Below are positions 10,550 to 35,172 of a DNA stretch of 62,718 nt, one piece after another. The DNA is from a virus. Each line of letters opens with the position of its first letter. The first letter of the stretch is position 1. Location: the IMG/VR virus record IMGVR_UViG_3300028901_000105, positions 1-62,718 of that record; one strand, given 5' to 3'. Under the pieces are notes generated by a model. That model ran no database searches and was not told the origin of the DNA. It saw only the letters and a program-made list of their open reading frames with translations. The translations under genes were made by a program, and so were the position numbers.

Positions 10550-12778
10550 TTAGCGGTAAAGCGCCTGATTGTGGTCGCTAACGTGATGCCATATCCACGT
10601 TTCGTCAACTTGCGGTTCGCACTCGCTTACTTGACTCTTCTCTGGCAAATTGGGTTCCAACGTTCGCGTCACTTTGCGCTCAACGATGCCCCGGCCATCC
10701 GGTTCGCTCATCTGCTCGGCAACCGCGACCTTGTACCCCTTCTCAACCAAGAGGTTAATGTATTGGTCAACGGCATGATGCGGGACGCCCGCCATTGGCA
10801 CACGTTCATCACGACTGATCGGACGCCCGGTAAGCACCAAATCGAGTTCACGCGCGGCGGTTTCGGCATCGTCATCGAAGGTTTCGTAAAAGTCTCCCAA
10901 GCGGTAGAAAAGGATGTGATTGGGGTACTCTTTTTTAATGTCTAGGTATTGCTGGCGCAGCGGGGTAACACGGGTAGCAGACTTGAAGGCCGAAACAGTT
11001 TTGAACGCGCCGCCGCTGGCGACTTGTACGAATTTGTCATTAGCTGCTTGAACATCTGGGTCTTCGAGTGCCAGATGAACGACTGGTGACATATTCAGCG
11101 TTTCAGCAAATGCAGCATCAGCAGCGCGGGCAGCTTCATTGACTTGTTTCACCCAAGCGTCTGTTTTAGCAAGATCATCCTCAACAGGCGGTGCGGTTGT
11201 AACCATATCCCACAAGCAAAGCATTCCATGAGGAAGGTTTTCAAACCGCACAGTCAGCGCTAATGGGCCGCGATTCTCAACTTTGCCTTTTGTGCCAGCC
11301 GGAACAATGACCTTTCCTTGCTCGTGAATATCTTCACTGGCATAAATGGTTGAACCTTTCTTAATTGTCTTTAGCGTGGCGTCGCTAGCCCGAGGGATAG
11401 GCTTGAGATTTTCAGGCGGTGGTACTGGGAAATCCAGATCAATGCCGTTCTCTGCTGCCCATGCTTCGCCAGCTTCAGTTATTTCAATCTTTGCCCAATC
11501 GTTGGTATCGGTAATAAACCCATGCTCCCGCAATGCCTTGCGGGTTGCCGCGTTCTTGACAACCGGTTCGCCTTTCGCTAGTGCCTGAAGGAATTCAACC
11601 TGTCGCACTGGTAGCATTAGACTTGGCGTATCAATCCGAATTTCAGGCAGATTATGTTTCGCTGCATGGCAGTTCCGGCAAATCACCTTGCCATACGGCA
11701 GCCCCATTAATGGCTTTGCCCAACCCGGTTGTTGAGCAGCGCGGTTCGACTCCGAATCAAGAAACACGCCGCACACATCACAACATATCCAACCAAGCCA
11801 ATCTTGACCGGGTTTAAGATCGCGCTTGGAGTCGTTCTCAACCATGTAGGGGCTTGTGCCGTCGGCTTCATTACAAGGCGGCAGCTTCATCACGCATTCC
11901 CAGCAGTACAACTCGCCATTGCTGGGATATAGGTCTACGCTAAGCTGTCCACATTGGGTGCAATAACGTGCTTCTGACTTAGGCGAAAATTCGCGGATTT
12001 TGCCAAACGGTGTCGGGCTGAAATGCAGATCGCGCTCAATGCGTAAATTGTAATGCCCACGCGACGCTCGAATTTCAGTGAGAGGGATATATCCCCATTC
12101 AGCACCATCGGGATAATCTGAATTGTAGGCATACCCAAAAGCCACGTCGCTTTTCGGATCGTACTCCACGATGTACCATGTCCATGAACTGTCAGGCGTG
12201 AACCAGCGGACATGCACAATCTTTTCCGCTGCCGGAATGCTTTCGGTTTCGTACATACCGGGGATTGCATGGCCGGGCGGAATAAGCACATAAGCGCTAT
12301 TGGAAGCAGGCCAACGATTGGCGGGGCGCAGCAGATGAGTTGGAATGACGAGTGTTGCACCTTCTACTTGTACACGCGAATGGGCTGGTAGTTCGCGCTC
12401 GATTTTCAACCATGTACCTTTCAGCACACCTGATGGGCTATCCCATTCAACAGAGTCACCGTCGGTAAATGAAATAACATCGTTTTTCTGCACTGGCGGG
12501 GGCGCAGATGCTTGGATTGCAGGCTGTGGCGGCTCAGATACCTTAATCGGCGTTTTGGGGCTTTCTGGTGCGTTTAACAGCCCTTCCATGCCGTACACAC
12601 CATCTACAATTTGCTGCACAGCATCCGGCAGCTTTTCACCCGTGTAAATCCAACAAACCTTTTTGTCGTCCCATTTACACCCGGCTTGACGCAAAGCATC
12701 TTTGTATTGGGGAACAGCCTTGATCTCCCAACTTCCTTCGACCTTTTTTGCTGTAACTGATGTTTTTGCTTTCGTCAT
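10550..12778 (-). CDS. Multidomain protein: DUF5710-like N-terminus, DUF2958-like domain, zinc ribbons, C-terminal MutS domain I (mismatch-binding domain only)
   Basis: The C-terminus QQYLDIKKEYPNHILFYRLGDFYETFDDDAETAARELDLVLTGRP..PMAGVPHHAVDQYINLLVEKGYKVAVAEQM..VERKVTRTLEP aligns with the bacterial MutS N-terminus, including GDFYE. The mid region FTPDSSWTWYIVEYD..FGYAY..EWGYIPLTEI..IERDLHFSP is DUF2958-like. CxxC pairs are also present. Confidence 0.8.
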   Translation of the reverse strand: MTKAKTSVTAKKVEGSWEIKAVPQYKDALRQAGCKWDDKKVCWIYTGEKLPDAVQQIVDGVYGMEGLLNAPESPKTPIKVSEPPQPAIQASAPPPVQKNDVISFTDGDSVEWDSPSGVLKGTWLKIERELPAHSRVQVEGATLVIPTHLLRPANRWPASNSAYVLIPPGHAIPGMYETESIPAAEKIVHVRWFTPDSSWTWYIVEYDPKSDVAFGYAYNSDYPDGAEWGYIPLTEIRASRGHYNLRIERDLHFSPTPFGKIREFSPKSEARYCTQCGQLSVDLYPSNGELYCWECVMKLPPCNEADGTSPYMVENDSKRDLKPGQDWLGWICCDVCGVFLDSESNRAAQQPGWAKPLMGLPYGKVICRNCHAAKHNLPEIRIDTPSLMLPVRQVEFLQALAKGEPVVKNAATRKALREHGFITDTNDWAKIEITEAGEAWAAENGIDLDFPVPPPENLKPIPRASDATLKTIKKGSTIYASEDIHEQGKVIVPAGTKGKVENRGPLALTVRFENLPHGMLCLWDMVTTAPPVEDDLAKTDAWVKQVNEAARAADAAFAETLNMSPVVHLALEDPDVQAANDKFVQVASGGAFKTVSAFKSATRVTPLRQQYLDIKKEYPNHILFYRLGDFYETFDDDAETAARELDLVLTGRPISRDERVPMAGVPHHAVDQYINLLVEKGYKVAVAEQMSEPDGRGIVERKVTRTLEPNLPEKSQVSECEPQVDETWIWHHVSDHNQALYR

Positions 12779-13059
12779 TATGCTACCCGTGCCATCTGCA
12801 CTAAACCTTCATGGCTGTAGTAGTAACATTCGTCATATCCAGCAGCTTCCGCTTCCGCCCGCGTCTCAAAGACATCTTCAGGGCTACCCTGATCGCAAGC
12901 ACGATAGAGTTTCCCTGTCCATTCATCGACAAAATAGTCGTCCGTGGCGTTGTCATCTGTTCCATGCAACCATTGGAAATCCTGCCAGTTCGCCATATGA
13001 CGGACATACTTGCTAATCCATTTCTGCGGATTACGAATGCGGCGCTTTTTCTTGGTCAT
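12778..13059 (-). CDS. Hypothetical protein
   Basis: 93-aa ORF, first gene after the promoter at 13098-13126. Its stop overlaps the start of the downstream gene. Confidence 0.65.
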   Translation of the reverse strand: MTKKKRRIRNPQKWISKYVRHMANWQDFQWLHGTDDNATDDYFVDEWTGKLYRACDQGSPEDVFETRAEAEAAGYDECYYYSHEGLVQMARVA

Positions 13060-13097
13060 TCCCCTGCCCTCCTGTTGGGGTTGTGTTGATATAGATA

Positions 13098-13126
13098 ATT
13101 ATACCGGGTATTACCCGGTATTGCAA
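13098..13126 (-). promoter_or_regulatory. Sigma70-type promoter with palindromic operator in the spacer (P1)
   Basis: The minus strand reads TTGCAA-TACCGGGTAATACCCGG-TATAAT. The 19-bp perfect palindrome TACCGGGTA-N-TACCCGGTA is at 13102-13120. Confidence 0.75.
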
Positions 13127-13160
13127 TGGGGAATGCAGAAATTGGACATGGAATGCGTTT

Positions 13161-13640
13161 TTAGCTTAAGGTCTGTGCCGTGTGAATCAGTGCAAGGGCG
13201 ATCACCATCTTACGGTTTAGGTGTTTGCCGTGTTTTAGGTATTTAGCTGCTGCTGTTTTCTCCAAAACCCCCTGTAGGGTTTTGAGTTCGCTGGCAACAT
13301 CCAACGCCCCAATCGAGCGTTCGCCCGCGTGAAGTTTTTCTTTACTGGAACTGGTTCCGGCTCGCGCGCTTAAATAGTGTTCAACATAAGATTGCCACTG
13401 TTGCGGCGAGATCGACGCAGAATCCAATGCCAGCTTCTTGATGCTAATCTCTACCAACAGCGTCAGATTTTCGCTGTAGCTAGGCAGCGGATAAGGGATA
13501 CCCGCCTCATCAGCGACATGCTGCAATTGACCACGCAACGTCTCCAATCCTCGCCCAATGGTGGTTATTTGAGGCAGGAAGGCGTCATAGAGAATGTAAA
13601 TGCTTTCGCCTTGTGGCAATCTATTTCGAACCTTATACAT
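13161..13640 (-). CDS. Hypothetical protein
   Basis: 159-aa ORF in the leftward operon. Confidence 0.65.
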   Translation of the reverse strand: MYKVRNRLPQGESIYILYDAFLPQITTIGRGLETLRGQLQHVADEAGIPYPLPSYSENLTLLVEISIKKLALDSASISPQQWQSYVEHYLSARAGTSSSKEKLHAGERSIGALDVASELKTLQGVLEKTAAAKYLKHGKHLNRKMVIALALIHTAQTLS

Positions 13641-14478
13641 GGCTGATCACCTCAGCCAGTTCATGGAGGCCAATTCGCCGCAGCGCAGCCGCGCAAGCCT
13701 TACGAACCTGCTCTGGCGTATGCGCCCACTCTGCCAGCAAAATTCCGGCTGCCTCTGCGTGAGGTGTCCCGTCCTGCAAGAAAAAGCCAGCCGCAAGTCG
13801 GACAAGTTCCTCATAGGCGCTGGTATCGGGTCGCCCTGCCTGCCCGTTACGATAAACCGTTAATGGCAATGGTGGGTCAGCATACACCACCCGACACTCA
13901 AGACCGTCCTTTTTCTCGGCAGTGACATATTCGTAGGCGACCTGCGCCGCGTCTTCATAATCGGCAAACCGCCGCTCAACCGCCAGTTCCCAATCCAACT
14001 GCTGGCCGTCCGCAAAGGTGGGTGAAATCCGCTTCTGGATGATGAACAGTGCTTCCGGCAAGCTCTCATCTGAGTCTATGCCTACAAAACCGGGGGTCGC
14101 TACCCGCGTCCCATTAAGCGCATTCTCAACATACCGCTGCCCGAAATCAAACACCGGAAATCGGGGCAATACCAAGCCATCTGGGACAACTCGGAAAACG
14201 TTGGCATTGGTCACACTGAACCGCCGGGCGGTCGCTTCCGCTTCCGCTTCATCGGGTTTGGTATCCACCGTCACCCAAACGACTTCTTTTTCCACCTTCT
14301 TCGGCACTTGGATGAGATAATCACCACCAACAGCAGCAAATCCCTGAGCAGTTAGTTTGTGATCTTCAGTCAAGTACCCCTTGCTGACAGCCAACTTGAG
14401 CGCCGCCGCTTGAATATGCGAAACGTCACCTTGCTTGGCAGCGTTCAACACCGCTTGCATTTTTGGCGATAGTGCCAA
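13633..14478 (-). CDS. Hypothetical protein
   Basis: 281-aa ORF with an 8-nt overlap with the downstream gene. Confidence 0.7.
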   Translation of the reverse strand: MALSPKMQAVLNAAKQGDVSHIQAAALKLAVSKGYLTEDHKLTAQGFAAVGGDYLIQVPKKVEKEVVWVTVDTKPDEAEAEATARRFSVTNANVFRVVPDGLVLPRFPVFDFGQRYVENALNGTRVATPGFVGIDSDESLPEALFIIQKRISPTFADGQQLDWELAVERRFADYEDAAQVAYEYVTAEKKDGLECRVVYADPPLPLTVYRNGQAGRPDTSAYEELVRLAAGFFLQDGTPHAEAAGILLAEWAHTPEQVRKACAAALRRIGLHELAEVISHV

Positions 14479-14494
14479 TTTAACACCTTTCTAA

Positions 14495-14698
14495 CTAGTT
14501 CTCAACCGAATGGTTGTTCTGGTCATCCCCAACGGGTTTCATTTCGCGGGTGCGGAATATATCCTCATCCGAGTCGTCTACCTGTGTTTCAATGGGACTG
14601 TTTGTTATTTGGTCAAACAGTCCCATATGCCACATGTGCTTCAGCCACGCGATATAGCCCCTTGATGAGATCGTATTCGCGTCCTTAGGAGGCCACAT
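14495..14698 (-). CDS. Hypothetical acidic protein
   Basis: Internal ATG (MWPPKD...) overlapping the stop of 14685..14951. 67 aa. Confidence 0.5.
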   Translation of the reverse strand: MWPPKDANTISSRGYIAWLKHMWHMGLFDQITNSPIETQVDDSDEDIFRTREMKPVGDDQNNHSVEN

Positions 14699-14951
14699 CG
14701 GTATCCTCCACCACAATGGGCAAACGGCCATGCTGGTAGGTGTAGCGGCAGTCCGCGAAAAACTGCTGTGCGCTCTCCAATCCACATTCCTTCGATTCGC
14801 TCCGCAGTCCCGCTTTCAAATACGGAATGCGCTGCTTGAGGGCTTCTATCGCTACGGGGTCAATGTGGGCGAACATGTCACTGGCAAGCAAGGCCAAGTG
14901 GTTTTCCAGCGATACCGATGCGTAATCAACTTCCTGCTGTATAGTAGTCAT
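14685..14951 (-). CDS. Hypothetical protein
   Basis: 88-aa ORF, first gene after the promoter at 15024-15052. Confidence 0.65.
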   Translation of the reverse strand: MTTIQQEVDYASVSLENHLALLASDMFAHIDPVAIEALKQRIPYLKAGLRSESKECGLESAQQFFADCRYTYQHGRLPIVVEDTDVAS

Positions 14952-15023
14952 AGCCCTACCTCACTAGGGTTAGCAGCAGTCATCGTTGTCGCAATCGGTG
15001 GCTGCTGCGCTTCATTTGATTCT

Positions 15024-15052
15024 ATGTTACCGGGTAATACCCGGTATGTCAA
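15024..15052 (-). promoter_or_regulatory. Sigma70-type promoter with palindromic operator in the spacer (P2)
   Basis: The minus strand reads TTGACA-TACCGGGTATTACCCGG-TAACAT. The palindrome is at 15028-15046. Confidence 0.7.
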
Positions 15053-15057
15053 ATTAA

Positions 15058-15087
15058 GAAAAAAGGCGATTGTCAAAAATCGCCTTT
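15058..15087 (-). terminator. Rho-independent terminator after the primase operon
   Basis: aaaggcgat/atcgccttt 9-bp stem, followed on the minus strand by a T run. It sits just upstream (in transcription order) of P2. Confidence 0.7.
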
Positions 15088-15172
15088 CGGGGTATGCTCT
15101 GAGGTGTGACATCTCAGCGGCTTTAGGGCTGTCGAGAAACCAACGCGCCTCGGATTTCCGGGGCGTTTTGGT

Positions 15173-18360: not shown

Positions 18361-18368
18361 GATGCCCC

Positions 18369-19409
18369 CTAATCCAATGTTGCGATGATGTCAGCGATGA
18401 GGCTGGATGTTTTGTCAACATCAACCGGGATGCGTTTTGGGGCAGGTTCGGCAGCCTTTATCCCAAAAACCTTTTCTTTCTCTTTCTCAAGCCGCCGCTG
18501 GGCGCGGGCTTCCAACTTCCCATCGTAGGTGGGCCGGAAGATGGTTTCTTTTTCCGCAATCGTGGCAGGTTTTTGCAACATGGAAATATCATCAAACTGA
18601 TCCGTCCACCAAAGTTTCATGCCAATGATTTCCAGCGCCGTGAACGGTTCTTCCTTGAACTGAAATTCCTTGAAGGCGTCATTGGGTTTATCTTGCCCAA
18701 TCTTGCCTCGAAAGAAGTTGCCCATCTTGCGGACGTGTGACCAACCCTTGTTGTTGTTCAGCGTGGGGTGTTTGATTCCGAAGAAGTAACAGACCGCCAA
18801 GTCATAGGCTTGCTGTTCGGTTATTTCTTCTGTGGCTGATTCTTCAAACAGTTCGGTTTCGATGAATGGCTTGAATGCGGTTGGCGTTTCCTCCGTGCCG
18901 ATAGGCGCGGGTGAATATTCTTGTTTTTCTATACGTTCTTCTAAAGCGTTATTCGTTGGTGCCTGATTGGGTACAGGGGGTGTACCTGATTGGGTACAGG
19001 TTTCGTCGGAAAGGTGTACCTGATTGGGTATAGGGTGTGCCTGATTGGGTACACCTTTTTGATAACGCTGAACGTTTTCAGCCCATCGGTCGCGCACAAC
19101 AATAACGGTGGGAATTCCTTGTTTTTGTTCTTCCGCCGTTGGGCTGATAACCCGGATGTAACCCATGTTTTCAAGCTCGGTTCGGGTTTTACGAATCGTA
19201 TCCTTACCCATGCGAGTCACGCGGGCGGTTTCCCGTATACCTTCTTCGCATTGTCCGCCTTGCCCCGCCCATCTGACATAATGCCCTAAAAGGCGGTACT
19301 GGCTGGGGTTCAACTCATCGTCCGCCATGTTCAGCATCATATGGAAGTAGGTTTTTTCGCTGCGTTCTGCGACGATGCTTTGTTTTTCGTCGCCCCTTTT
19401 TTTATCCAT
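18369..19409 (-). CDS. Replication initiator / replisome organizer-like winged-helix protein
   Basis: N-terminal wHTH-like segment (TARVTRMGKDTIRKTRTELENMGYIRV). Sits upstream of dnaB-dnaG and contains four iterons in its coding sequence. Confidence 0.55.
   Translation of the reverse strand: MDKKRGDEKQSIVAERSEKTYFHMMLNMADDELNPSQYRLLGHYVRWAGQGGQCEEGIRETARVTRMGKDTIRKTRTELENMGYIRVISPTAEEQKQGIPTVIVVRDRWAENVQRYQKGVPNQAHPIPNQVHLSDETCTQSGTPPVPNQAPTNNALEERIEKQEYSPAPIGTEETPTAFKPFIETELFEESATEEITEQQAYDLAVCYFFGIKHPTLNNNKGWSHVRKMGNFFRGKIGQDKPNDAFKEFQFKEEPFTALEIIGMKLWWTDQFDDISMLQKPATIAEKETIFRPTYDGKLEARAQRRLEKEKEKVFGIKAAEPAPKRIPVDVDKTSSLIADIIATLD
18962..19052. repeat. Four direct 13-bp iterons CCTGATTGGGTAC (candidate origin)
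   Basis: Copies at 18962, 18985, 19019 (last base T) and 19040, flanked by the AT-richer stretch 18920-18960. They encode the PNQ repeats of the initiator. Confidence 0.7.
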
Positions 19410-19570
19410 GATAGAACCCTCGTTCTAAGGTCTATAGGTAATTTTAATCTAGTTCCAACCTTTCTACTTGCACGAACAGCAATCCTGCGCTATTCTGTAG
19501 TCAGGTGGAGGTAGTGATAACTATTCCGCCAGCGGTCGCCTAAACCGCAAGCCCGATGTGCATACACCCG

Positions 19571-19590
19571 AAGCCCCCTATGGGGGTTTT
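19571..19590 (+). terminator. Plus-strand GC hairpin plus T run inside the minus-strand operon
   Basis: aagccccc-tat-gggggtttt. A paralogous element is at 22044-22065. Confidence 0.4.
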
Positions 19591-19707: not shown

Positions 19708-20418
19708 CTAGAATGGAATGTCGTTGTCGGGCGGCGGAACGTAATCCGTTACAGGCTCACGCGCCTTTTCAGGCGTTTGCCCCAAGTTTCCGTAGATTTG
19801 ATCGGCTACAGCCTGAACAGTCAGAAAGGCTTCCGGGCTGGTCGGATTCAAATCACCCACATGGACTAGACTCGGCAGTGGCGTAACCGTCTCAATCATC
19901 TTGATCGGCGGCAGCTTATCCAGTTCCTTCGACAAAATTTTCCCGGTCATCTTGGTTCCGTGAACGGCCATGAATGGGGCGCATTCTTCAAGCTGACGGA
20001 AGGTTTGTTCCTTGTCGTCGTAGCGCCCAAGCAGCCATCTCCGGGTAGCGTCAGTATCCAGCTTCAACAACTGAGTCTGTAACGCGCGAGGGGCATTCAG
20101 CACCCACAGCAGAAATTGACTGGCGTCATAGGTGACAGTTGCTTCTGTCGCGGCTTGGAATGCGCCATGTGTCTTTTCACCCGTCAGGTGATAGCGGGCA
20201 ATGGCGGCCTTTTGCAGTTCGGTTTTTAAGGCGTCGGCAGGCGCTTTGGCGTCGTCATAGGCTTTTTTGGCAGCATCGGCGGCATCCTGAAGGGCTTTGT
20301 ATTTGCGCCCCTGCTCGGCAAGATCGGCGTCCAGTTTTTGCAACAAGGCTTCGCTGTCACCTTCATGGGCTGCAAGGCCACCGCTTAATAGGTCATCTGG
20401 CAGATATTCAAAAGGCAT
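19708..20418 (-). CDS. Coiled-coil (Gp157-like) protein ending in an SSB-type acidic tip ...DNDIPF
   Basis: The N-terminal half is Ala/Lys/Asp-rich coiled coil. The last residues PPPDNDIPF match the conserved bacterial SSB C-terminal tip D-D-D-I-P-F. Confidence 0.5.
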   Translation of the reverse strand: MPFEYLPDDLLSGGLAAHEGDSEALLQKLDADLAEQGRKYKALQDAADAAKKAYDDAKAPADALKTELQKAAIARYHLTGEKTHGAFQAATEATVTYDASQFLLWVLNAPRALQTQLLKLDTDATRRWLLGRYDDKEQTFRQLEECAPFMAVHGTKMTGKILSKELDKLPPIKMIETVTPLPSLVHVGDLNPTSPEAFLTVQAVADQIYGNLGQTPEKAREPVTDYVPPPDNDIPF

Positions 20419-20468
20419 GGTTTACCTCGTATGTCTGGTTAAGGGGGTATGACACCCCCTGCGAATGG

Positions 20469-21980
20469 TTAAGCGAAAAAGGCGTTCAGGTCAGATTCTT
20501 CAACGGGTGGTTCTTCGGCGAAATCGACATCTTCCTCTGGCGGAAGTGGACTGACGAGAGTCGCATTCAGATAGCCCTGCTTGGCTTCGTACTGCACACA
20601 AACTTCACCAATCTCGTACTCGTTTCCCGGCTGCCACTGGTCGATGCCCCATTCGGTGTAAAACTCATCACCCACCCACGCTTTGAAGGTGGTTGAGCGC
20701 CCGTAAGCACGAACAGGCTGTGGTGTGAGCAGTTCGATGTAGGTCTGTTTCTGCTTTTTGCCGCGCACGGTTGTTTCGGATTCAACATATTTGGCGCGAA
20801 CGGCATACATGGGAACACGCTGTAAGACACAGGTGTTGACGTGGGCGTTCCACGCGGCGGCGGGATTGGGGAATTTCTGCTTGTAGTCTGCACCCAATGA
20901 CTTCTCAATATCCTGCCCTACCTGCCGCAAGCCGTACCAAAGGTTGTCGATCAATTGCAGTGCGTTATCTTCTGTCCAGCCCTCACCTGCTGGTTTGGTT
21001 TTTGTGGATGCTGGCTTGTTGATTTCCGCCGCAATCTGCCGCAAGCGGGCGACAAGCTGTTCTTCATTCAGCGTGGTATCGCCCAGCTTGGTAATCGGGT
21101 TCTGTGGCTGAATCTTGGGCATCCAAAGATCCATGTTATCCCCAACCAACCCCAAGTCTTTGAGCAGATAGGCAATCTTATTTTTGGCGATCTGATCTTC
21201 CAACCAATGCGGCGCGGGTTTCTCATCGGGCGGCGGTGGGCTTGCAGGCTTTTTATCCGGTGCAGGTGGTTGTTGGGCTTTGGGGGTAGCGGGCTGTGGC
21301 GGCGGGGCAATAATGGTCATACGCCCAGACTCATCGACATTAACATCCGCGCCAAGTTCTTCTTGGGTGTATAACCCTAAGATTTTGTCGGAGAATGTTA
21401 CCCGTAAATTAGCCGCCAGCGCCCGCCACTGAAACATGACTTTGGGCTGAATCTTGTAATTGCGGCTTTCCATGAGCGAGATGTTGACTTGCTGGCCGTT
21501 TCGCCATTCAGTGGTTTGGTAGCGGGTCGCTTCTTCAACACCAAAGCGGGTTGTATGGGGGGATTTACCCTTACGCTTCACGGTGACGATGCAGCGTTCA
21601 TCGTTGGCATCGAATTGAATGTCTTCCAATTCGTTGCTGTTGTAACACAGGGCTAACATCCCTTGTGGGTCGAGTGCGGGTTTGCCCTTAATCAGATCAA
21701 TTGACTTGAGCGCAGCCATCTCGGTTAGCCCAAGCGACAAGCCCTCAAGGAAGATCATCATAATATCGCCTTCGGTCAGCGGATTGCTGCCATTTTTGAC
21801 AAAGGCAAGCTGACTCTTGGCGATGTACTTGGCGAGGGTTTGCAGACGCCCGAATTGTTCTTCCGTCATGTGCAAAATCGAACGCGGAAGCGGGGCAAGA
21901 ACCCCTTGTGGTGCGTAAACCGCCAAGTCTGAGGGAGCGTTTAGCAGCGCAATTGAATTCGCTGTTGTTTCTTCAGACAT
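20469..21980 (-). CDS. RecT/Redbeta-superfamily single-strand annealing protein with long C-terminal extension
   Basis: GLSLGLTEMAALKSIDLIKGKPALDPQGMLAL...FDANDERCIVTVKRKGKSPHTTRFGVEEA resembles the Bet/RecT core. A Pro-rich linker is followed by about 200 extra residues. Confidence 0.6.
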   Translation of the reverse strand: MSEETTANSIALLNAPSDLAVYAPQGVLAPLPRSILHMTEEQFGRLQTLAKYIAKSQLAFVKNGSNPLTEGDIMMIFLEGLSLGLTEMAALKSIDLIKGKPALDPQGMLALCYNSNELEDIQFDANDERCIVTVKRKGKSPHTTRFGVEEATRYQTTEWRNGQQVNISLMESRNYKIQPKVMFQWRALAANLRVTFSDKILGLYTQEELGADVNVDESGRMTIIAPPPQPATPKAQQPPAPDKKPASPPPPDEKPAPHWLEDQIAKNKIAYLLKDLGLVGDNMDLWMPKIQPQNPITKLGDTTLNEEQLVARLRQIAAEINKPASTKTKPAGEGWTEDNALQLIDNLWYGLRQVGQDIEKSLGADYKQKFPNPAAAWNAHVNTCVLQRVPMYAVRAKYVESETTVRGKKQKQTYIELLTPQPVRAYGRSTTFKAWVGDEFYTEWGIDQWQPGNEYEIGEVCVQYEAKQGYLNATLVSPLPPEEDVDFAEEPPVEESDLNAFFA

Positions 21981-23897: not shown

Positions 23898-23974
23898 GTA
23901 TGAATTGTATGACTTGTATGACTTTCAGTCAAGTATGAAAAATGATACTAGTATGCCTTGACACATTAGTATGC
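23898..23974. promoter_or_regulatory. Array of six GTATG(A/C) repeats (operator-like) in the divergent control region
   Basis: Copies start at 23898, 23907, 23916, 23933, 23951 and 23969. Includes the ATACTAGTAT palindrome. Confidence 0.55.
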
Positions 23975-23986
23975 CTCGTTTACAAT
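23958..23986 (+). promoter_or_regulatory. Rightward promoter TTGACA-N17-TACAAT
   Basis: ccTTGACAcattagtatgcctcgttTACAAT. Two GTATGC repeats overlap it. The ATG at 23999 is only about 6 nt from the expected transcription start. Confidence 0.55.
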
Positions 23987-25043: not shown

Positions 25044-26009
25044 ATGTCCACCGGAGAGCGCCGTCCACTTGCAGAAGCCCAAATTATCGCTGAGGATTTA
25101 CTCGCCCTGCTCGCGCCGTATGCGGCGTGGTGCGCGATTGCGGGCAGCATTCGGCGACAGCGCCCCACCATTGGCGATGGCGAAATTGTAGCAATTCCTA
25201 TCGGCGGGCATATCACAAAGGCACATTCCCTGCTCGGCATTACGGATAAGCTGCTGCACGAGGGGGTTATCAGCCAAGCCCTGTACAATGGCAAACCACG
25301 TTGGGGAACAAAGCTGCGCGGAATCATTTACAAGGGCATGAAGTTCGAGTTGTTTATGGTGGACGAGTATAACCGGGGGTATCGCTTCGCGGTGTGTACC
25401 GGGCCAGATAACAGCGAGGACAAAGCCAATACGTATTGCATGACGATGATTAAGCGCGGCAAAGCGCCCTTCTCGGTTCACGATGGCTATGTATGGTTGG
25501 GCGATACCGCACTGAAGATCAACACGGAGGAAGATTGGTTCGCCCTGCTCGGTATTCCTTGCCTACCGCCACCAGAGCGCAGCATTAAAGCGTATATGCG
25601 CTTTTTCGGGCGTGGTCACCGTTGGGGTGATCCGCAGCGCTACCGCGTCCAGTATGTCCAGCAAACCCTTTGGAATCTAGAACACATGTTAGAATTGGAG
25701 GAGCGTCATTTGAAGGCGGATGCATCCCCTTCCCTGCCGCAGCGCGATTTCCAATGGTGTGCGCCGTGGCTGCGCGGCAATGGCATGGTCATCATCCGCG
25801 ATTGGCGCGGACGGTGGGTGCTGGCGGAACCCACGCATCCAGCGGCGGAAGGGTATCGCCAGCGGTTGTGCTGGATGAGTTCACCGCTGTTTGGTGGGGA
25901 ACAATACACATTAACCGCATGGCTGCGCGATCAATGGGAACGGCAGCATTTTGTAGCGGACGTGCTGGCTGAAGCAATCGAGGCATTAAGGGACGCGGTT
26001 TATGAATAG
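25044..26009 (+). CDS. Pol-beta-superfamily nucleotidyltransferase, minimal family-X polymerase-like
   Basis: AGSIRRQRPTIGDGEIVAI parallels the GSxRR..DxD motif. FELFMV and the C-terminal WFALLGIPCLPPPER parallel the PolX palm and thumb ends. There is an extra 130-aa tail. Confidence 0.5.
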   Translation: MSTGERRPLAEAQIIAEDLLALLAPYAAWCAIAGSIRRQRPTIGDGEIVAIPIGGHITKAHSLLGITDKLLHEGVISQALYNGKPRWGTKLRGIIYKGMKFELFMVDEYNRGYRFAVCTGPDNSEDKANTYCMTMIKRGKAPFSVHDGYVWLGDTALKINTEEDWFALLGIPCLPPPERSIKAYMRFFGRGHRWGDPQRYRVQYVQQTLWNLEHMLELEERHLKADASPSLPQRDFQWCAPWLRGNGMVIIRDWRGRWVLAEPTHPAAEGYRQRLCWMSSPLFGGEQYTLTAWLRDQWERQHFVADVLAEAIEALRDAVYE

Positions 26010-26925: not shown

Positions 26926-26928
26926 AAA

Positions 26929-27333: not shown

Positions 27334-27400
27334 ATTCTAGCGGCGTTCAAGTGGACAAGTCAGATGATTTGTTCTAAGCTATTTAGTAGTAGAATTTAAA

Positions 27401-27432
27401 CCCGGCAAGCGCCGCTTAACTCGCTTGCCGGG
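27401..27432. terminator. Bidirectional stem-loop between convergent genes
   Basis: cccggcaagcg / cgcttgccggg 11-bp stem. Confidence 0.65.
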
Positions 27433-27482
27433 TCGAGACACCGATCTGGAAGGTATCAAGTGATAGTGTACACAGGAATGAT

Positions 27483-27947
27483 TTACTTTTCTAGCCGCCC
27501 AATTTCTCGATTGAGCTTGTCGATTTTTTCTTGGGCGCTGGCGAGTTGCTCCTCTGTACGCTTGAGCAAGGCTCTCAGTTCGATGTTCTCGTTCTCGAAC
27601 GGCAGCAGTCGTTCAACCTCTGCGGACAATTCGGTTACCCGCCTTTCAAGCAGCACCATTTGCATTGTGGTCTGGCTGATGGCGGTTTGCATTCCGGGTG
27701 GCGTTCCGCGTTGGCCGTTTGTGAGTGCCAAATGGATTTCATCGAAGATGACTCCGCGTTCCTTCATTTCGGCAATCAGGGCAAAAACGGTCAGGTCATC
27801 TTCTGTGTACTGGCGGTGCTTTCCTTTTTGACCGGGGGCAGCACTTGGCGATAGATACTGTGCGAATTCAATAGCCCACTGGCGCACAGTTTCCTTGCTG
27901 ATGCCAAAAAGTTCCATGAGTTCGTTGGGTGTGTAGATCATACCCAA
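27483..27947 (-). CDS. MerR-family HTH transcriptional regulator with C-terminal coiled coil
   Basis: YTPNELMELFGISKETVRQWAIEF...RQYTEDDLTVFALIAEMKERG is a typical MerR N-terminal domain. It is the lone minus-strand gene in a plus block. TTG start, or ATG at 27941. Confidence 0.7.
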   Translation of the reverse strand: MGMIYTPNELMELFGISKETVRQWAIEFAQYLSPSAAPGQKGKHRQYTEDDLTVFALIAEMKERGVIFDEIHLALTNGQRGTPPGMQTAISQTTMQMVLLERRVTELSAEVERLLPFENENIELRALLKRTEEQLASAQEKIDKLNREIGRLEK

Positions 27948-28123
27948 AGATTACAGCACAATCGCTACCTTGTACCAGCTTGCTTTTAATGTGGGTTTAG
28001 ACGGTCAATATGTACAAAGAATACCCGTTCTATTGCGGGAGAAAGGCAATCTATGGCACAGTAAATCCAATGTGGCAACCTAACGACAATATAATCGCAA
28101 AGTATGACCAATCGTAAAAAAAG

Positions 28124-28160
28124 CCCCTCTTTTAATGGAAGAATTAACCATTAAAAGGGG
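28124..28160. other. Long imperfect hairpin immediately upstream of the ParM-like gene
   Basis: cccctcttttaatgg / ccattaaaagggg form about 13 bp with two bulges, preceded by an A7 run. Confidence 0.5.
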
Positions 28161-28181
28161 TATCAAACAGGAGCAAAGAAT

Positions 28182-29477
28182 ATGACTGCGAAACTACCAA
28201 AGGCCAAGAAGGAAAAGAAAGTTGACATCCCGATCTACACTGCGGCTTCACGTGTTAATGTGAGTGACGACGACCGTGAACGTTTGAAAGGTGTGGTCGG
28301 TTATGAAGGCGGGAATGGAAAGGGTGGCATTATCTTCTTAAACAAGAAGGGATTGCTTCAACGAACCATCCTGCCAAATGCCCGTATTCGCGTTACAGGT
28401 GATCGTCTGGCAGGTGATCGCGTCGGCGTGCGCGTCCCCTATGCACAGGTAGGCATGGATAAGTGGGGTTATTCAGATGCTTTATGGCACATCTCCGGGC
28501 GGGTTGACACTTTTCAAAGTTCGCCTGAGCGGTATGGCTCACCAGAGCACGTATTCCCGTTGCTGGTCATGATGGCCGAAAACGATCTTGCAGACGGTGC
28601 GTATGCTTTGTTGGTCACTGTTCCGCCCGGCTACTACAACAGTGTGATGAATCAGGTTGAAGAAGGGTTTAGCCGCGGCGAAGTCATGGACATAAACGGT
28701 CGTAAAGAATACACCGGGCAATGGACAATCACCCTGTCTAAAGATGAAAAGCGGCGTACCTATGCATTCCCGCGAGTCTTTGTGACCATGGAAGCGGCAG
28801 ACGCTGGTTATGCAGCGTTTCGGTATGACCTCCAAGGTAATGTTGTGAAGAAGCGGGGCGCAGACGGTTTCGATTTTCTGGGTGGGCGCGTTCGCGTCGT
28901 TGACTTGGGATTTGGGACTTGTGATACCCCAACCCTTATCGATTCTAAGCTGCTCGAAGATGGATTGAGCCGGGCCAGTGATGCTCAAGGTGGCATTCTG
29001 GTCAATATCGCTGAACCAATCATGGGTCAGGTCGTTGAACAGATTCCCGAAACACGGGACTGGCTAACGACAGCCCACGTTGATTACTGGTTGCGTCGGT
29101 ATGCTACAGGCTTCACGGACGCAGAAGGTAAAACCGTTAGGCCGTGGACGTCAGAAGCTGCTCAGGTGAGCATATCTGGCAAGATTCTGCATTTGCATTC
29201 CGCCTTTGAGCATTATGCGGAACAGTACGCCCGCTATGCTTATCGCCAGATACTGGCGGCTTCCACTGAGCAGAGCGATGTTGCGTTGGCAATTGGCGGC
29301 GGATGGCTGTATGCCATTAACCACGTGCAGCGCTGGTACAAAGAATCCGGTCTGGTGATGCAGTTCTTTACCCATCAGGATGTGCCACACCTGAAGGATT
29401 TCAGCTTCGTTGACATCAATCTTGCTGGACTTATGGCACTGGCGATTGTGTTGATCCGGGAAGGGGTCTTATCATGA
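28182..29477 (+). CDS. Actin-like segregation ATPase (ParM/StbA-like)
   Basis: RVVDLGFGTCDTP (phosphate-2 DxGxGTxD) and LAIGGGWLYA (adenosine motif). 431 aa, followed by a small RHH-like gene. Confidence 0.55.
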   Translation: MTAKLPKAKKEKKVDIPIYTAASRVNVSDDDRERLKGVVGYEGGNGKGGIIFLNKKGLLQRTILPNARIRVTGDRLAGDRVGVRVPYAQVGMDKWGYSDALWHISGRVDTFQSSPERYGSPEHVFPLLVMMAENDLADGAYALLVTVPPGYYNSVMNQVEEGFSRGEVMDINGRKEYTGQWTITLSKDEKRRTYAFPRVFVTMEAADAGYAAFRYDLQGNVVKKRGADGFDFLGGRVRVVDLGFGTCDTPTLIDSKLLEDGLSRASDAQGGILVNIAEPIMGQVVEQIPETRDWLTTAHVDYWLRRYATGFTDAEGKTVRPWTSEAAQVSISGKILHLHSAFEHYAEQYARYAYRQILAASTEQSDVALAIGGGWLYAINHVQRWYKESGLVMQFFTHQDVPHLKDFSFVDINLAGLMALAIVLIREGVLS

Positions 29478-29869
29478 TACCGCAGCGCCGTCCGCCGAAT
29501 GGTTCGGGTACATCAGGGACAGTGACACTGGAACTGAACCTAAATGATCCAACGCAGCGCCGCGCCTATGAGGTTGCGTGCAGACTTGCCATTCCGCACG
29601 GGCGGCGAAAAGCGCTGTTGGTTCAGATATTAAATGCCCTCGGCGATTTTGAGGAGCGGACGAATAAGTTGCCGACGGCGGAATTGTTGTCTGCGTCGAT
29701 CATGGCTGCCGCTTTTCTGGGACGGCTAGTAATGGGAACGGGGGCGCAAGTAGATGCGCCCCCTCCGCCTCCGGGTAAGATTCTCGTTGGGACAGCTGCC
29801 AAACCGGACGAAGAACAATCCGCGAAGGTGTTTTCGTCCGGGTTTGCAAGCCGTTTCAAGAAAAACTAG
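29474..29869 (+). CDS. ParR-like RHH adaptor (putative)
   Basis: ATGA overlap with the ParM-like gene. VTLELNLNDPTQRRAYEVACRL fits a beta-strand plus helix pattern. The C-terminal half is disordered. Confidence 0.4.
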   Translation: MIPQRRPPNGSGTSGTVTLELNLNDPTQRRAYEVACRLAIPHGRRKALLVQILNALGDFEERTNKLPTAELLSASIMAAAFLGRLVMGTGAQVDAPPPPPGKILVGTAAKPDEEQSAKVFSSGFASRFKKN

Positions 29870-29904
29870 GTATACTATAAGATCATTTGTGCGTAAGGTG
29901 AGCC

Positions 29905-31323
29905 ATGAATCTAGACCTCGAAAACAAACTTTCCATCACGGTAGACGATCTTGTGAGCCAACGTATTGCTGTGCTGGGTGCGTCGGGTATGGGCAAAAGC
30001 AACACGGTTGCGCTGCTTTTGGAAAACCTGATTCCGCAGTGGCCGTTTGTGATCTTCGATATTCACGACGAATATTGGGGACTGCTTGAACAGTTCCCGA
30101 TGCTGCGGGTCGGTAAACCCTGTCCATATGGGGACGATAAATCACCCGCCATCCAGCTTGAAGCTGGCCCGGATGAAGCGGCCAAGATCGCAGACCTGTC
30201 TTACGACAAACGGCTTTCGGTGCAGGTCAATATGCTGTATATGAACCCGGACGAACGGTTGGAATTTGTGCATAACTATTGCGCCCGAATTTGGCAGCGT
30301 AATATGGTGGCGCGAACTCCGTATGGGGTGGTGCTGGAAGAAGCCCAAAACTTTATTCCGCAGCTTGGCAACAGCGAAGCACTGTTGCTGATGAAACGCT
30401 TTGCGCTGGAAGGGCGCAAGTTTGGATTCACCGTCGTGATTTCGTCGCAGCGTTCCAGCGAAATCCACAAAACGGTTCTCGGCATGTGCGGGGTGGCGTT
30501 TCTGCATGGGGTTGATATTTACAATGATGTGCAAGCCTATCAGGGGATGCTGCCGTGGACGTTTAGCGAAACCAAAAAGATAGCCTTGTCGCTTTCCGTA
30601 GGGCAGGCGATTGTCAAATGGAAACGCAAGGGGGTTAAGTTCTATGAAACCGCAAGTATTTGCCCACGCCAGACGCTGCATGTGGGTGACACGCCGGGGC
30701 TTGAAACCCGCGAGGCGGTATCGCTGAAACCGATTGACCCTGATCTCATTGACGAACTTCGCCAGCAGCTTCAGGCGGTTGCGGCAGATGAGACGGTTGA
30801 TGAAACCACGCGCGAGATTCAACGGCTAAAAGACCTTGTAGCCAAGCTGGAAGGCGAGAAACAGGCATTGGCTAAAGAACTCGCTGTGCGTCCAGTTGCC
30901 GTCCAGCAGACGTTTTTAAATGACGAAGAACAGGTCGAAATGGTGCGGGTGGAGGAACGTACCACCACCACCTATCGGTCGAGCAGGGCTGTCAATCTGG
31001 CGGTCAAACGCCAAGAAGCGGTTTTTGCCAATTACCTGACACAGTTACGGGGACTGAGTAAATCCCAACACCGGGTCTTGGCCTATTTCATGGAAGATGA
31101 AAGCCGGATTGTCGGGGCAGAAGTGATTGCCCGTGCGTGGGATTATCAGGTGGGAACCGTCCAGAACGTATTCACCAAGCTGGTGAATATGGGATGGCTG
31201 ATGCGGGTAGGGGGTGGCAAATACAAATGCCAAGTGACCTATCGCATAAAAGAAGAATTTGCCGATCTCGTCCCGGAGGACTTGATTCAGCAAATTCTGG
31301 ATGTGCTTGATGGACGCCCCTAG
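29905..31323 (+). CDS. HerA/FtsK-superfamily (DUF87-like) ATPase with coiled coil and C-terminal winged helix
   Basis: Walker A GASGMGKSNT, then DIHDEYW, then Walker B VVLEEAQNFIPQ. The C-terminal SQHRVLAYFMEDE...VQNVFTKLVNMGWLMRV is wHTH-like. Confidence 0.6.
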   Translation: MNLDLENKLSITVDDLVSQRIAVLGASGMGKSNTVALLLENLIPQWPFVIFDIHDEYWGLLEQFPMLRVGKPCPYGDDKSPAIQLEAGPDEAAKIADLSYDKRLSVQVNMLYMNPDERLEFVHNYCARIWQRNMVARTPYGVVLEEAQNFIPQLGNSEALLLMKRFALEGRKFGFTVVISSQRSSEIHKTVLGMCGVAFLHGVDIYNDVQAYQGMLPWTFSETKKIALSLSVGQAIVKWKRKGVKFYETASICPRQTLHVGDTPGLETREAVSLKPIDPDLIDELRQQLQAVAADETVDETTREIQRLKDLVAKLEGEKQALAKELAVRPVAVQQTFLNDEEQVEMVRVEERTTTTYRSSRAVNLAVKRQEAVFANYLTQLRGLSKSQHRVLAYFMEDESRIVGAEVIARAWDYQVGTVQNVFTKLVNMGWLMRVGGGKYKCQVTYRIKEEFADLVPEDLIQQILDVLDGRP

Positions 31324-31340
31324 TGCGGGGGCGTTTTTAT
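31314..31340 (+). terminator. Rho-independent terminator
   Basis: acgcccc-tagtgcg-ggggcgt followed by tttttattt. Confidence 0.75.
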
Positions 31341-31640
31341 TTATTTCCGGCGCGTCAGCATCATTCCGACAAGGCTTTCGATGGTTTCATAGACATCTAA
31401 GTTGGCAGGGTCAACCCATTCAACAAGCCAGCCATATTCGCGTGTGAGATTGGCTCGCTCAATGGTCAATGTCGAATCGATAGCGATACGATAATTGACC
31501 AATGCGGCATCCAAAGTCATGCCTGCGGTGCTGACATCAAACGTCAATTTGCCCGGATGGTTGTGGCCGCGCTCAAGCAGCTCATCAATTTTGTCATTCC
31601 AAAGTCTTTCAAGTTCTGCTTTCTGTGTTTCGGTTAGCAT
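31341..31640 (-). CDS. Hypothetical protein
   Basis: Internal ATG (MLTETQKAELERLW) after GAGGGAA, overlapping the upstream stop. 99 aa. Confidence 0.55.
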   Translation of the reverse strand: MLTETQKAELERLWNDKIDELLERGHNHPGKLTFDVSTAGMTLDAALVNYRIAIDSTLTIERANLTREYGWLVEWVDPANLDVYETIESLVGMMLTRRK

Positions 31641-32041
31641 AATTCCCTCTGTGGTTGGGCAAACATTCGGGTCATTTCTTCGTGATGTTCTTGCCCCAAA
31701 AACACCACATAATGCGCTAGGTTCAGCAGGTAGCGATTGCGTTCTTCCCGGCGCTGGGCAACACTGCGCGTCGTGGTAATGACTCGTTCGTACCGCTGAT
31801 CGAATGCCCCGCGAACAACCGCGCCATTGGAGGGTTTCAACGCTGTGCCAACGATGAGTAGGGGGATGCGCCAGTAGATGCATACCCGCGCCACTTCCGC
31901 CTCAATGCCATAGCCGTCTCCTGTGATGATGCGGCAGCTTCCGCCGCAGGGAATGGGCATGGCATGGAGCGCAGCATTACGCGCCAATGAAATCATTTCG
32001 TCAGTAGGGCAGTCAATCCCCAGTACCAAAATATTCATCAT
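31634..32041 (-). CDS. SLOG / DUF2493-like protein
   Basis: ATGA overlap with the upstream gene. ILVLG...IITGDGYGIEAEVARVCIYWRIPLLIVG resembles the DUF2493 Rossmann-like pattern. Confidence 0.4.
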   Translation of the reverse strand: MMNILVLGIDCPTDEMISLARNAALHAMPIPCGGSCRIITGDGYGIEAEVARVCIYWRIPLLIVGTALKPSNGAVVRGAFDQRYERVITTTRSVAQRREERNRYLLNLAHYVVFLGQEHHEEMTRMFAQPQRELC

Positions 32042-32238
32042 TGACGCACCCCCAAACGGCGATACACGCGCAGGTAACGGCGGCAGTAGCGCAGGCGTTC
32101 GGCCTCGGCTGTCTGGCGCAGACCGTCCTCGAAATCCTGTAGGGCAAGCTGCGTAAATGCCCCCTCGTATTGGATGATGCACTGCCGCACATTGGCGACA
32201 AGTGCATCCAGTGTCCGGCGCTCTTTACGGGTTAGCAT
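32038..32238 (-). CDS. Hypothetical small protein
   Basis: 66-aa ORF, translationally coupled on both sides. Confidence 0.55.
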   Translation of the reverse strand: MLTRKERRTLDALVANVRQCIIQYEGAFTQLALQDFEDGLRQTAEAERLRYCRRYLRVYRRLGVRQ

Positions 32239-34291: not shown

Positions 34292-34865
34292 AGGCTTCTT
34301 CCTTGTGTACGCTTAAAAATTCCCAAATGTGGGGGTGAGACTCGCCACTTTCAACCTGTTCGGCTGTCAGGACGAGCAGGGGGATACCGCGCCGCTTTAA
34401 GAGCCGCGCCTTCCGTTTGTCATTCTTGATCTTGTGGGGCAGCTTGTGGACGCCGCCGTTGATTTCAATGGCCCACATCTGCCCTCGGCAGACGACCATA
34501 AAATCAACCAAGCAGACCCACTTTTTGCGCCCGCTGGCTTTGGTTGCCAGTGCATATTCCGGCACATATTCCACGCCCAAGTCATTCAGCAGATTGGCAA
34601 CCAGCGTTTCACTTGGCATAGGATTTTTCAGGCGGTGATCCTGTACATGGCGCATCGCCCAACGCCAGCCGTATTTTTTGACCATCGCGCGAAAGCCGAG
34701 TTCAGCCTTCGCTTTTTGGCTGCACAGGAAACAAATCGACTGGCGGCGTTCGGCATCCTTCGCACTACGTTTGGACAGCCACCGCCAATCGTCGCATTCC
34801 GGGCAGTACACGTGGTACTGTCCCTCAGCATTTGGGGTCGCCCAATCAACCTTCACGTCGGTCAT
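34269..34865 (-). CDS. Vsr / DUF559-like endonuclease with N-terminal zinc ribbon
   Basis: CPEC...CFLC pair. The core LVDFMVVCRGQMWAIEINGGVHK...NDKRKARLLKRRGIPLLVL matches the DUF559/Vsr pattern (D..ExxG..H..D..R..L..G). Start taken at the internal Met (MTDVKV). Confidence 0.6.
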   Translation of the reverse strand: MTDVKVDWATPNAEGQYHVYCPECDDWRWLSKRSAKDAERRQSICFLCSQKAKAELGFRAMVKKYGWRWAMRHVQDHRLKNPMPSETLVANLLNDLGVEYVPEYALATKASGRKKWVCLVDFMVVCRGQMWAIEINGGVHKLPHKIKNDKRKARLLKRRGIPLLVLTAEQVESGESHPHIWEFLSVHKEEAYGIPTIG

Positions 34866-35106
34866 GGTGGTTCTCCCGCCATTCCCCAAAGCGGGCAAAT
34901 GAACGGTCAATCCGCGTGTAGCCCAAATGTAGGGCTGCTCGAATGGCCTGTACTGCGGTTTCGCGCCGTACAACCTGCCGACAATGCCCGTTGATCGTGC
35001 GGACAACCACAAAACTGCGGTCGCCAAACACATCCGGTTGTTCACAGCGTACAAGTTCGGCTGTGACCGTTTGCCCCCTGTACTTTCGTGTAACTTTCAC
35101 TGGCAT
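34846..35106 (-). CDS. Hypothetical protein (first gene after P3)
   Basis: Internal ATG (MPVKVTRKY) after AGGAGAG. 86 aa. Confidence 0.55.
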   Translation of the reverse strand: MPVKVTRKYRGQTVTAELVRCEQPDVFGDRSFVVVRTINGHCRQVVRRETAVQAIRAALHLGYTRIDRSFARFGEWRENHHDRREG

Positions 35107-35143
35107 AGGACTCTCCTGTGTGACATCTCTTTGAGATAAAAGG

Positions 35144-35172
35144 ATTATACCGGGTATTACCCGGTATGTCAA
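35144..35172 (-). promoter_or_regulatory. Consensus sigma70-type promoter with palindromic operator in the spacer (P3)
   Basis: The minus strand reads TTGACA-TACCGGGTAATACCCGG-TATAAT. The palindrome is at 35148-35166. Confidence 0.8.

Follow-up and report, generated by a model that had tools for sequence, protein, structure and literature searches.

Domain I (MutS-I) of MutS, a mismatch repair protein, has been described outside MutS only in the polyvalent proteins of phages and conjugative elements, where it is mixed with methylases, ArdC-N and Dar domains and is proposed to bind the invading element's DNA (Iyer, Burroughs, Anand, de Souza and Aravind, 2017, J Bacteriol, PMC5512222). Small stand-alone MutS-related proteins of phage-associated elements are also found as the MutS-like (MSL) accessory proteins of diversity-generating retroelements (DGRs; Wu et al., 2018, NAR, PMC5758913). 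The virus genome discussed here, IMG/VR record IMGVR_UViG_3300028901_000105 (62,718 nucleotides; this whole stretch is called the window), encodes a 742-aa modular protein with MutS-I at its C terminus, a DUF559-type nuclease and a UvrD-superfamily helicase, and the transcription units of all three are preceded by copies of one promoter-operator module. From the sequence of the window alone it had been predicted that the three act together as a phage-encoded toolkit for processing mismatches or heteroduplexes (hereafter the original prediction). The features named there all lie where it placed them. The comparison with related phages leads to a different proposal, to which we would give even chances: a repressor-controlled, probably early, regulon that serves two independent modules and not the successive steps of one mismatch-repair-like pathway.

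A MutS-I protein of the polyvalent kind

BLAST and alignments divide the 742-aa protein (coordinates of this and the other features are collected in Table 1) into eight parts, namely a header domain, an SH3-like module, DUF2958, a Cys-rich module, a winged helix-turn-helix-like (wHTH-like) module, a second SH3-like module, a linker and MutS-I. The original prediction had recognised the last of these correctly: besides the strong Pfam match, the C-terminal 147 aa align to residues 5–118 of E. coli MutS (PDB 1E3M; E ~1e-29) with Phe36 and Glu38, the Phe-X-Glu wedge, intact. Unlike E. coli MutS, the protein has no connector, core, clamp or ATPase domain and no dimerisation parts; Pfam gave no match to MutS domains II–V in the 742 aa, the polypeptide ends ~35 aa past domain I, and its scores against full-length MutS models lie far under the cut-offs (143 vs 480 bits for NF003810, 138 vs 642 for TIGR01070). 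Since the ATPase, clamp and MutL-contacting parts are missing, the protein, judged by its domain content, cannot act as a MutS or signal repair. The header domain has no significant match in Pfam or PDB, the only hint being DUF5710 at 0.027 in one of 22 sequences, and its 70-aa profile returned nothing significant from 5.8 billion proteins. For DUF2958 no informative literature was found.

With at least six modules, among them MutS-I, which is listed in PMC5512222, the protein shows what characterises polyvalent proteins, several unrelated domains in one polypeptide of a mobile element, and in its relatives these modules occur together with DNA methylases and DarA_C. On this comparison the fusion family appears to be a new version of the known polyvalent MutS-I proteins, from which it departs in several respects. 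Neither ArdC-N, which is present in ~80% of the described cases, nor the MPTase peptidase was detected by Pfam in the 742-aa polypeptide (a separate ArdC-N/MPTase protein gene lies on a 93-kb relative introduced below), and the header domain is a different, undescribed one. The window gene stands at the end of a replication module in an operator-controlled unit and not beside packaging or transfer genes, and whereas the described cases come from Bacteroidetes and Firmicutes, the carrier here is a temperate tailed phage of 52% GC. Compared with the MSL proteins, both architecture and context differ, and no reverse transcriptase or DGR cassette was seen near the window gene.

The family is very rare: when P0004, which belongs to it but has neither MutS-I nor DUF2958, served as query in an exhaustive HMMER scan of 1.84 billion representatives, only 41 proteins were retrieved. 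MutS_I is present in 11 of the 41; the others carry MethyltransfD12, MTS, DarA_C or DUF488-N3a, the last as a fusion in one member. The recurrent layout has the N-terminal domain first and MutS-I last, the minimal forms (213–231 aa) consist of these two alone, and GDFYE[TL]F is kept in every family member displayed, while the modules are otherwise shuffled. The DUF2958 relatives P0006 and P0008 are large N6_Mtase/Eco57I proteins.

The same shuffling is seen at the genomic level in the related loci (given L numbers here), which were viewed over 20 kb around each gene and form a tiny sample of mutually related genomes. In the window and in those relatives in which this region is in view (L001, L032 and L036) the fusion gene is the last of the operator-controlled unit after DnaB and DnaG, and the same slot in relatives, after DnaB(/DnaG) and a few small genes, holds differing versions: P0003 and P0022 with MutS-I, P0004 without MutS-I and followed by an N6_Mtase gene, and P0005 fused to an MTS methylase. 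The gene of an N6-adenine methylase, orthologous among the loci (47–67% identical), lies directly downstream of the fusion gene in L003, L032, L035, L036 and L037, in L036 with a C5 methylase gene in between; it is the closest recurrent neighbour of the fusion and stands immediately downstream in four of the eight MutS-I loci seen. L007 encodes an LPD29-MTS protein that shares the family's N-terminal domain. As to the window phage, a methylase gene seems to have been deleted and the partner lost; a 28-aa remnant at 39693–39776 is 89% identical to the C-terminal end of a DAM-like/GNAT protein of L005. A separate feature of two relatives, absent from the window, is a Prok-E2_D and ThiF (E2/E1-like) pair a few kb upstream of the MutS-I fusion (L034, 2261–3708; L037, 925–2435).

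A stand-alone MutS domain I is almost unheard of outside MutS. Since in this family the wedge is intact and the repair-signalling parts are absent, it offers a natural test case for an isolated mismatch reader in a virus, with DNA shielding, methylase targeting and the blocking of host mismatch repair during phage recombination as open roles.

One operator at three promoters, and its turnover in relatives

The 19-bp perfect palindrome TACCGGGTAWTACCCGGTA occurs exactly three times in the window against 0.01 copies expected by chance, and every copy fills the 17-nt spacer and overlaps the -10 element of a strong minus-strand, near-consensus sigma-70 promoter (P1, P2 and P3); the other strong promoters of the region (23904–23986 and 35950–35977) lack it. 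The claim that genes ~20 kb apart are driven by the same promoter-operator is thereby confirmed for P1 and P3. The original prediction does not mention P2 and the up to four unrelated open reading frames (ORFs) that it drives.

P1 is followed by a 93-aa gene and then by the gene of the MutS-I protein, and the P3 unit begins with an 86-aa gene, after which come nuclease, helicase and two further small genes, of which the 136-aa one is conserved in L005 and L007. In the P2 unit one ORF is doubtful, that of 96 aa, which overlaps the 88-aa one, and homologues of the 88-, 281- and 159-aa genes sit upstream of the fusion gene in relatives. In L003 (920–1000) the ribosome-binding site that in the window leads to the 93-aa gene opens the fusion gene directly and the 93-aa gene is absent at this position; in this alignment the 93-aa gene looks like an insertion between P1 and the fusion gene. 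Elsewhere in the window, a DUF488 gene (37756–38220, minus strand) lies behind a promoter (38229–38258) with a half operator only (ACGCGGTATAAT), which matches a half-site of the operator variant of L003.

In related phages the operator sequence changes. The close relative L005 (helicase 93% identical) has a P3 module identical to that of the window, but L003 carries a different palindrome, TACCGCGCAATACGCGGTA, before its MutS-I fusion, and L001, L007 and L031 share the palindrome AACATAATTATTATGT, which stands before a homologue of a P2 gene, before the fusion gene and before the nuclease gene. L035 has two copies of TACCTTAAAGTTTAAGGTA and L036 two copies of TTAACATA..TGTTAA. The 93-kb JGI contig Ga0613812_000061 holds L034 and L009 and is divergent from the window (helicase 57%, nuclease 51% identical): its palindrome TGCGGTATAATTACCGCA is present in three copies, which precede an operon of small genes, a DUF3560 gene followed by the gene of an 837-aa MutS-I fusion (P0038), and a small gene followed by nuclease and helicase. 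As the three units are found behind three copies of another palindrome on a divergent relative, the co-regulation is conserved; on these comparisons the shared regulation is real, with the same three transcription units kept and the palindrome exchanged, and the trio of MutS-I protein, nuclease and helicase co-occurs and is evidently co-regulated in two divergent genomes. By analogy, retention of the units together with turnover of the operator is the behaviour expected of a repressor/operator specificity pair in temperate phages, and the regulon would make a clean example of operator-repressor turnover.

As to what might bind the operator, a MerR-family regulator encoded in the window is a candidate. 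MerR proteins typically bind palindromes in promoter spacers, and the identity pattern in relatives would fit: the protein is 99% identical in L005, which has the same operator, and 38% identical in L007, which has a different one. Its gene lies alone on the minus strand within a plus-strand block and overlaps a 123-aa plus-strand ORF (27460–27831).

The nuclease and the helicase

Sequence profile and structure model place the 198-aa nuclease in the DUF559/EDxHD branch of the PD-(D/E)xK nucleases. Its own Pfam matches are sub-threshold (DUF2726, 5e-4; MTES_1575, 2.6e-3), those of its homologues to DUF559 or DUF2726 are weak, and phmmer of the nuclease against PDB found nothing; a profile of seven homologues matches the catalytic domain of the homing endonuclease I-Bth0305I (PDB 3r3p) at 1.7e-5. 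With the AlphaFold2 (AF2) model, which has a predicted local distance difference test (pLDDT) score of 81.8, Foldseek found 3r3p at a template modelling (TM) score of 0.74 and the endonuclease-like protein NGO0050 (3hrl) at 0.68, and further R2 RLE, TnsA and Bax1, the partner of the XPB helicase. D121, E134, H140, D149, R151 and K152 are invariant across the family, as is the signature D...E.(N/D)G..H...D.RK. Relative to 3r3p and 3hrl, which like the window nuclease belong to the wider Vsr-like PD-(D/E)xK branch, an N-terminal Zn-ribbon and a helical region are added. The earlier label 'Vsr/DUF559-like' is thus apt in its second half, whereas Vsr holds at the superfamily level only: no Pfam match to Vsr was obtained at E<=0.01 and no Vsr structure is among the Foldseek top 50. 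Searches with the nuclease gave no match in any of 50,697 cultured-phage records, and a scan of JGI metagenomes with its profile returned nothing. In four divergent phages (51–72% identity) the gene keeps its place and the type of promoter that precedes it; in L007 it lies behind the operator of that lineage with no helicase adjacent.

The 688-aa helicase belongs to superfamily 1A (SF1A) and, as originally predicted, is UvrD-like, a member of the UvrD superfamily, and its motifs can be read in the translation (AGTGKT, DESQD, GDKFQAIYAFAGA and VARTRA; Walker A, DExx and III–VI). As for the designation UvrD/PcrA-type, the scores lie far below the equivalog cut-offs for uvrD (45 of 1144 bits), pcrA (59 of 911) and rep (48 of 951), the best being helicase IV (71 of 543), and also far under that for RecB; these scores do not place it among the orthologues of UvrD, PcrA or Rep. 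It matches phrog_1967 at 9e-88, a family of SF1 'DNA helicases' with members in Pseudomonas phage MiCath and in Brevundimonas and Salinibacter phages, and homologues are present in at least 112 cultured-phage records with 30–33% identity over the helicase core. The two cultured-phage contexts viewed are replication modules, and in MiCath the gene adjoins those of a polymerase, an exonuclease and a Holliday-junction resolvase. Different from this family, with which it shares the core, the window helicase has a 150-aa low-complexity C-terminal extension and appears translationally coupled to a DUF559 nuclease, of which the 50,697 cultured-phage records have none.

A 23-nt overlap joins the start of the helicase gene to the end of the nuclease gene, and it recurs in L005 and L009. 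Its presence in three genomes is suggestive of two genes that are translationally coupled and work as a pair. PADLOC led to the rejection of a known defence system: the likeness of the helicase to GajB there is no more than that of any generic UvrD-like protein, and the nuclease and the fusion match nothing.

Proposed roles and alternative explanations

In the proposal favoured here, the three near-consensus sigma-70 promoters with the same spacer palindrome would define a small repressor-controlled and probably early regulon. Its module A, behind P1, would be a DNA-binding protein of the polyvalent type built like beads on a string, with header, shuffled small modules and C-terminal MutS-I, which in relatives is joined to a DNA methyltransferase, either by fusion or by translational coupling. 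It may dock on distorted or mismatched DNA or on junctions of single and double strands in freshly replicating or recombining phage DNA and thereby shield or mark that DNA against host surveillance, such as restriction and possibly host MutS. Module B, behind P3, would be a machine of helicase and nuclease that acts on DNA ends or branched intermediates, unwinding and cutting them, and either supplies single strands for the RecT-like annealase or degrades host DNA. As no exonuclease partner or neighbour of the RecT-like gene was recognisable, the making of single-stranded ends by the helicase-nuclease is a reasonable role.

Several points weigh against this proposal. The window and the 93-kb contig both have fusion, nuclease and helicase under a shared operator, so that the modules may be functionally linked, and the early timing, the identity of the repressor and all activities are predictions. 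The argument from methylase partners comes from relatives only, since no DNA methyltransferase match was found anywhere in the window. Classical polyvalent proteins are encoded near packaging or transfer genes and often have a processing peptidase, and the window gene has neither. Finally, the full-length AF2 model of the 742-aa protein, made with five sequences, is poor (pLDDT 43), so that it could not be used for a structure search and the folds of the extra modules are not readable from it.

An explanation that we hold to be rather unlikely, yet worth weighing, and that takes up the anti-host-MMR role offered as an alternative in the original prediction, is that the MutS-I protein acts as a decoy, occupying mismatches in RecT-made heteroduplex or blocking host MutS and so protecting homeologous phage recombination from host mismatch repair (MMR), with the nuclease-helicase working apart in end processing. 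Host MutS and MutL strongly suppress homeologous and oligo-mediated recombination, so there would be a barrier to overcome. In all 11 MutS-I members the Phe-X-Glu wedge is strictly conserved despite 45–75% identity of the domain, all repair-signalling parts are missing and binding would therefore be non-productive, and the gene closes the replication-recombination module to which the RecT-like gene belongs. On the other hand, tight binding of mismatches is not known for an isolated MutS domain I, and the reading presupposes a host that has a MutS. Moreover, the family partner is a gamma-class N6_Mtase (PF02384) and not Dam, a partnership that fits restriction evasion better than MMR. Still somewhat less probable is the specific form of this explanation, a dedicated anti-MMR decoy with a captured MutS domain I that would be expressed early, hide the mismatches of RecT-made heteroduplexes from host MutS, and be co-regulated via a fast-evolving operator with a nuclease-helicase that prepares the substrate. 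If this is true, the phage would thereby counter the barrier that its host raises to homeologous recombination, and a MutS-I protein that blocks host MutS could serve recombineering.

The originally predicted pathway, self-contained and co-expressed, in which MutS-I reads mismatches in phage heteroduplex, the DUF559-type nuclease nicks and the UvrD-like helicase unwinds, now appears quite improbable. All three domain types are present and apparently intact (FxE motif, invariant D/E/H, helicase motifs), the RecT-like annealase would create heteroduplexes, and a second divergent genome with all three genes keeps the sharing of an operator although the operator sequence has turned over, so that the part of the prediction that concerned co-regulation gains from the comparison. 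The step from there to joint mismatch processing does not. No MutL- or MutH-like protein was found in the window, and with MutS domains II–V also absent there is no known way to couple recognition to incision. MutS-I behaves as a swappable end-module, whose place a methylase can take while the slot and the regulon stay as they are, and the closest recurrent neighbour of the fusion is, as described above, the N6-adenine methylase and not the nuclease or the helicase. Among solved structures the nuclease comes nearest to a homing endonuclease and a DUF559 protein and not to Vsr, the helicase is of a common phage type, found in replication modules in both contexts viewed, and the unrelated P2 operon belongs to the regulon as well. 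Co-occurrence, which had been suggested as a check, gives a divided answer: the trio is present in both genomes that are fully visible, but no nuclease homologue was found on the four other contigs with MutS-I fusions (61, 66, 37 and 22 kb) by a search of limited sensitivity that detected relatives down to 51% identity, and the L001/L007 lineage has the regulon with a methyltransferase fusion instead of MutS-I and, in L007, a nuclease without helicase. A phage MutS-Vsr-UvrD pathway is thus not supported and should not be carried on as an annotation.

Matches of MutS-I in phage records by tblastn could not be used for co-occurrence: the three opened encode full-length MutS (876–942 aa), are probably host DNA and have no related helicase or nuclease. 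A JGI scan for GDFYETFD (120 rows) was likewise set aside, the motif lying near the N terminus in every ORF that carries it, as in canonical MutS.

That the nuclease is simply a homing endonuclease of the EDxHD (I-Bth0305I) type, either free-standing or domesticated, with no functional tie to the helicase or the MutS-I protein would agree with its best PDB matches in sequence and structure, with its Zn-ribbon, of which many homing endonucleases have an N-terminal one, with its occurrence without helicase in L007 and with the other HNH- or endonuclease VII-like genes of the genome, but is hardly to be expected because its position and promoter type are constant in four divergent phages and not sporadic, and because the overlap with the helicase gene is kept in three genomes.

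Table 1. Features of the window referred to in the text, in order of position.
Feature	Coordinates	Strand	Remarks
Tyrosine integrase	5997..6968	-	marks the phage as temperate
MutS-I modular protein, 742 aa	10550..12778	-	ORF and Pfam
MutS domain I (aa 605-707)	10658..10966	-	Pfam MutS_I 2.3e-35; GDFYETF keeps mismatch-inserting Phe and Glu
DUF2958 module (aa 189-256)	12011..12214	-	Pfam 7.6e-8; in the family only in P0001 and P0002
N-terminal header domain (aa 1-70)	12569..12778	-	family signature; no significant Pfam/PDB match
First gene of P1 unit, 93 aa	12778..13059	-	no family match
P1	13098..13127	-	TTGCAA-17-TATAAT; palindromic 19-bp operator TACCGGGTAATACCCGGTA in spacer, overlapping -10
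P2 unit, up to four ORFs (88, 96, 281, 159 aa)	13161..14951	-	no family matches
P2	15024..15053	-	TTGACA-17-TAACAT; just downstream of terminator-like hairpin after primase gene
236-aa protein with SSB-type tail (...PPPDNDIPF)	19708..20418	-	no OB-fold match; adjoins RecT-like gene
RecT-like single-strand annealing protein	20469..21980	-	phrog_561 4.9e-13; not under the operator
'PolX-like' gene	25044..26009	+	only sub-threshold DNA_pol_B_thumb, 1.1e-3
MerR-family regulator	27483..27947	-	candidate only for binder of the spacer palindrome
Two distal small P3-unit genes (~136 aa, ~100 aa)	31341..32044	-	bidirectional terminator at end
SF1A UvrD-superfamily helicase, 688 aa	32225..34291	-	UvrD-helicase PF00580 3.8e-22; AAA_19 PF13245; UvrD_C PF13361
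Nuclease, 198 aa	34269..34865	-	N-terminal Zn-ribbon and DUF559/EDxHD-type PD-(D/E)xK domain
First gene of P3 unit, 86 aa	34846..35106	-	no family match; 80% identical in L005
P3	35144..35173	-	TTGACA-17-TATAAT; 12/12 consensus

Recombination and replication genes

Annealing and gap filling had been assigned to three further genes. The RecT/Redbeta-like annealase stands, as does the protein with an SSB-type tail, which ends in DNDIPF and may mimic the tail of SSB in order to recruit, or compete for, host SSB-interacting proteins. A minimal PolX-like nucleotidyltransferase could not be confirmed from its single sub-threshold match. The replication and recombination genes gathered in one minus-strand block are those of the RecT-like protein, of a replication initiator (with iterons inside it), of DnaB and of DnaG. 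Inside the initiator gene (18369..19409, minus strand), four copies of the ~23-nt repeat GGGTGTACCTGATTGGGTACAGG at 18955–19058 look like origin iterons, by analogy with the arrangement of lambda O and ori.

Genome, relatives and further features

Positions 1–141 of the window are identical to positions 62578–62718 over 141 nt, from which it follows that the genome was circularly assembled; it is probably complete at ~62.6 kb. Integrases are found in the window and also in relatives, and terminase- and portal-type structural genes (assigned by synteny with relatives) as well as two tRNAs are encoded. The phage is temperate and tailed, and its lineage is unsampled. When both regions were compared by megablast with the 50,697 phage records, no match appeared, so that there are no close relatives among deposited phages. 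IMG/VR was scanned with the helicase and the nuclease profile as well as with the fusion and its MutS-I domain, and no true relatives came out, the MutS-I pattern matches there being only host mutS genes at the ends of prophage contigs. The sole match of a GTDB genome scan is an already-known contig, binned as 'uncultured Rickettsiales' and probably misbinned.

Other features of the window concern regulation and mobile or unusual genes. A second repeated promoter-like motif, TTGCAATTACAGAACACTTGTGCTAAATT, has four plus-strand copies near structural genes (9842–9873, 52591–52622, 56765–56796 and 58000–58031) and may mark promoters of another temporal class. A pair of genes of the HNH or endonuclease VII-like kind (35186–35917, minus strand; 40693–41439, plus strand) share inverted repeats of 37 nt (35201–35237/41388–41424) and 23 nt (35406–35428/41215–41237) and may be paralogous homing-type nucleases. 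Upstream of the terminase genes, a 181-aa protein (39977–40522, plus strand) matches the Proteasome-subunit family (PF00227) at 5.9e-5, which is unusual for a phage. At the genome end (62003–62579) a minus-strand ORF region contains five tandem 135-bp repeats, corresponding to 45-aa units, of ~70–80% identity. A plus-strand trio at 28182–31323, encoding proteins of 431 aa and 131 aa and a HerA-like ATPase (DUF87) that matches anti-phage HerA models, is kept in L005 (94–100% identical) and L009 (30–42%). The HerA-like gene of L009 (836 aa) aligns in two pieces and has a weak LAGLIDADG_3 match, and it may therefore hold an intein or a homing-endonuclease insert.

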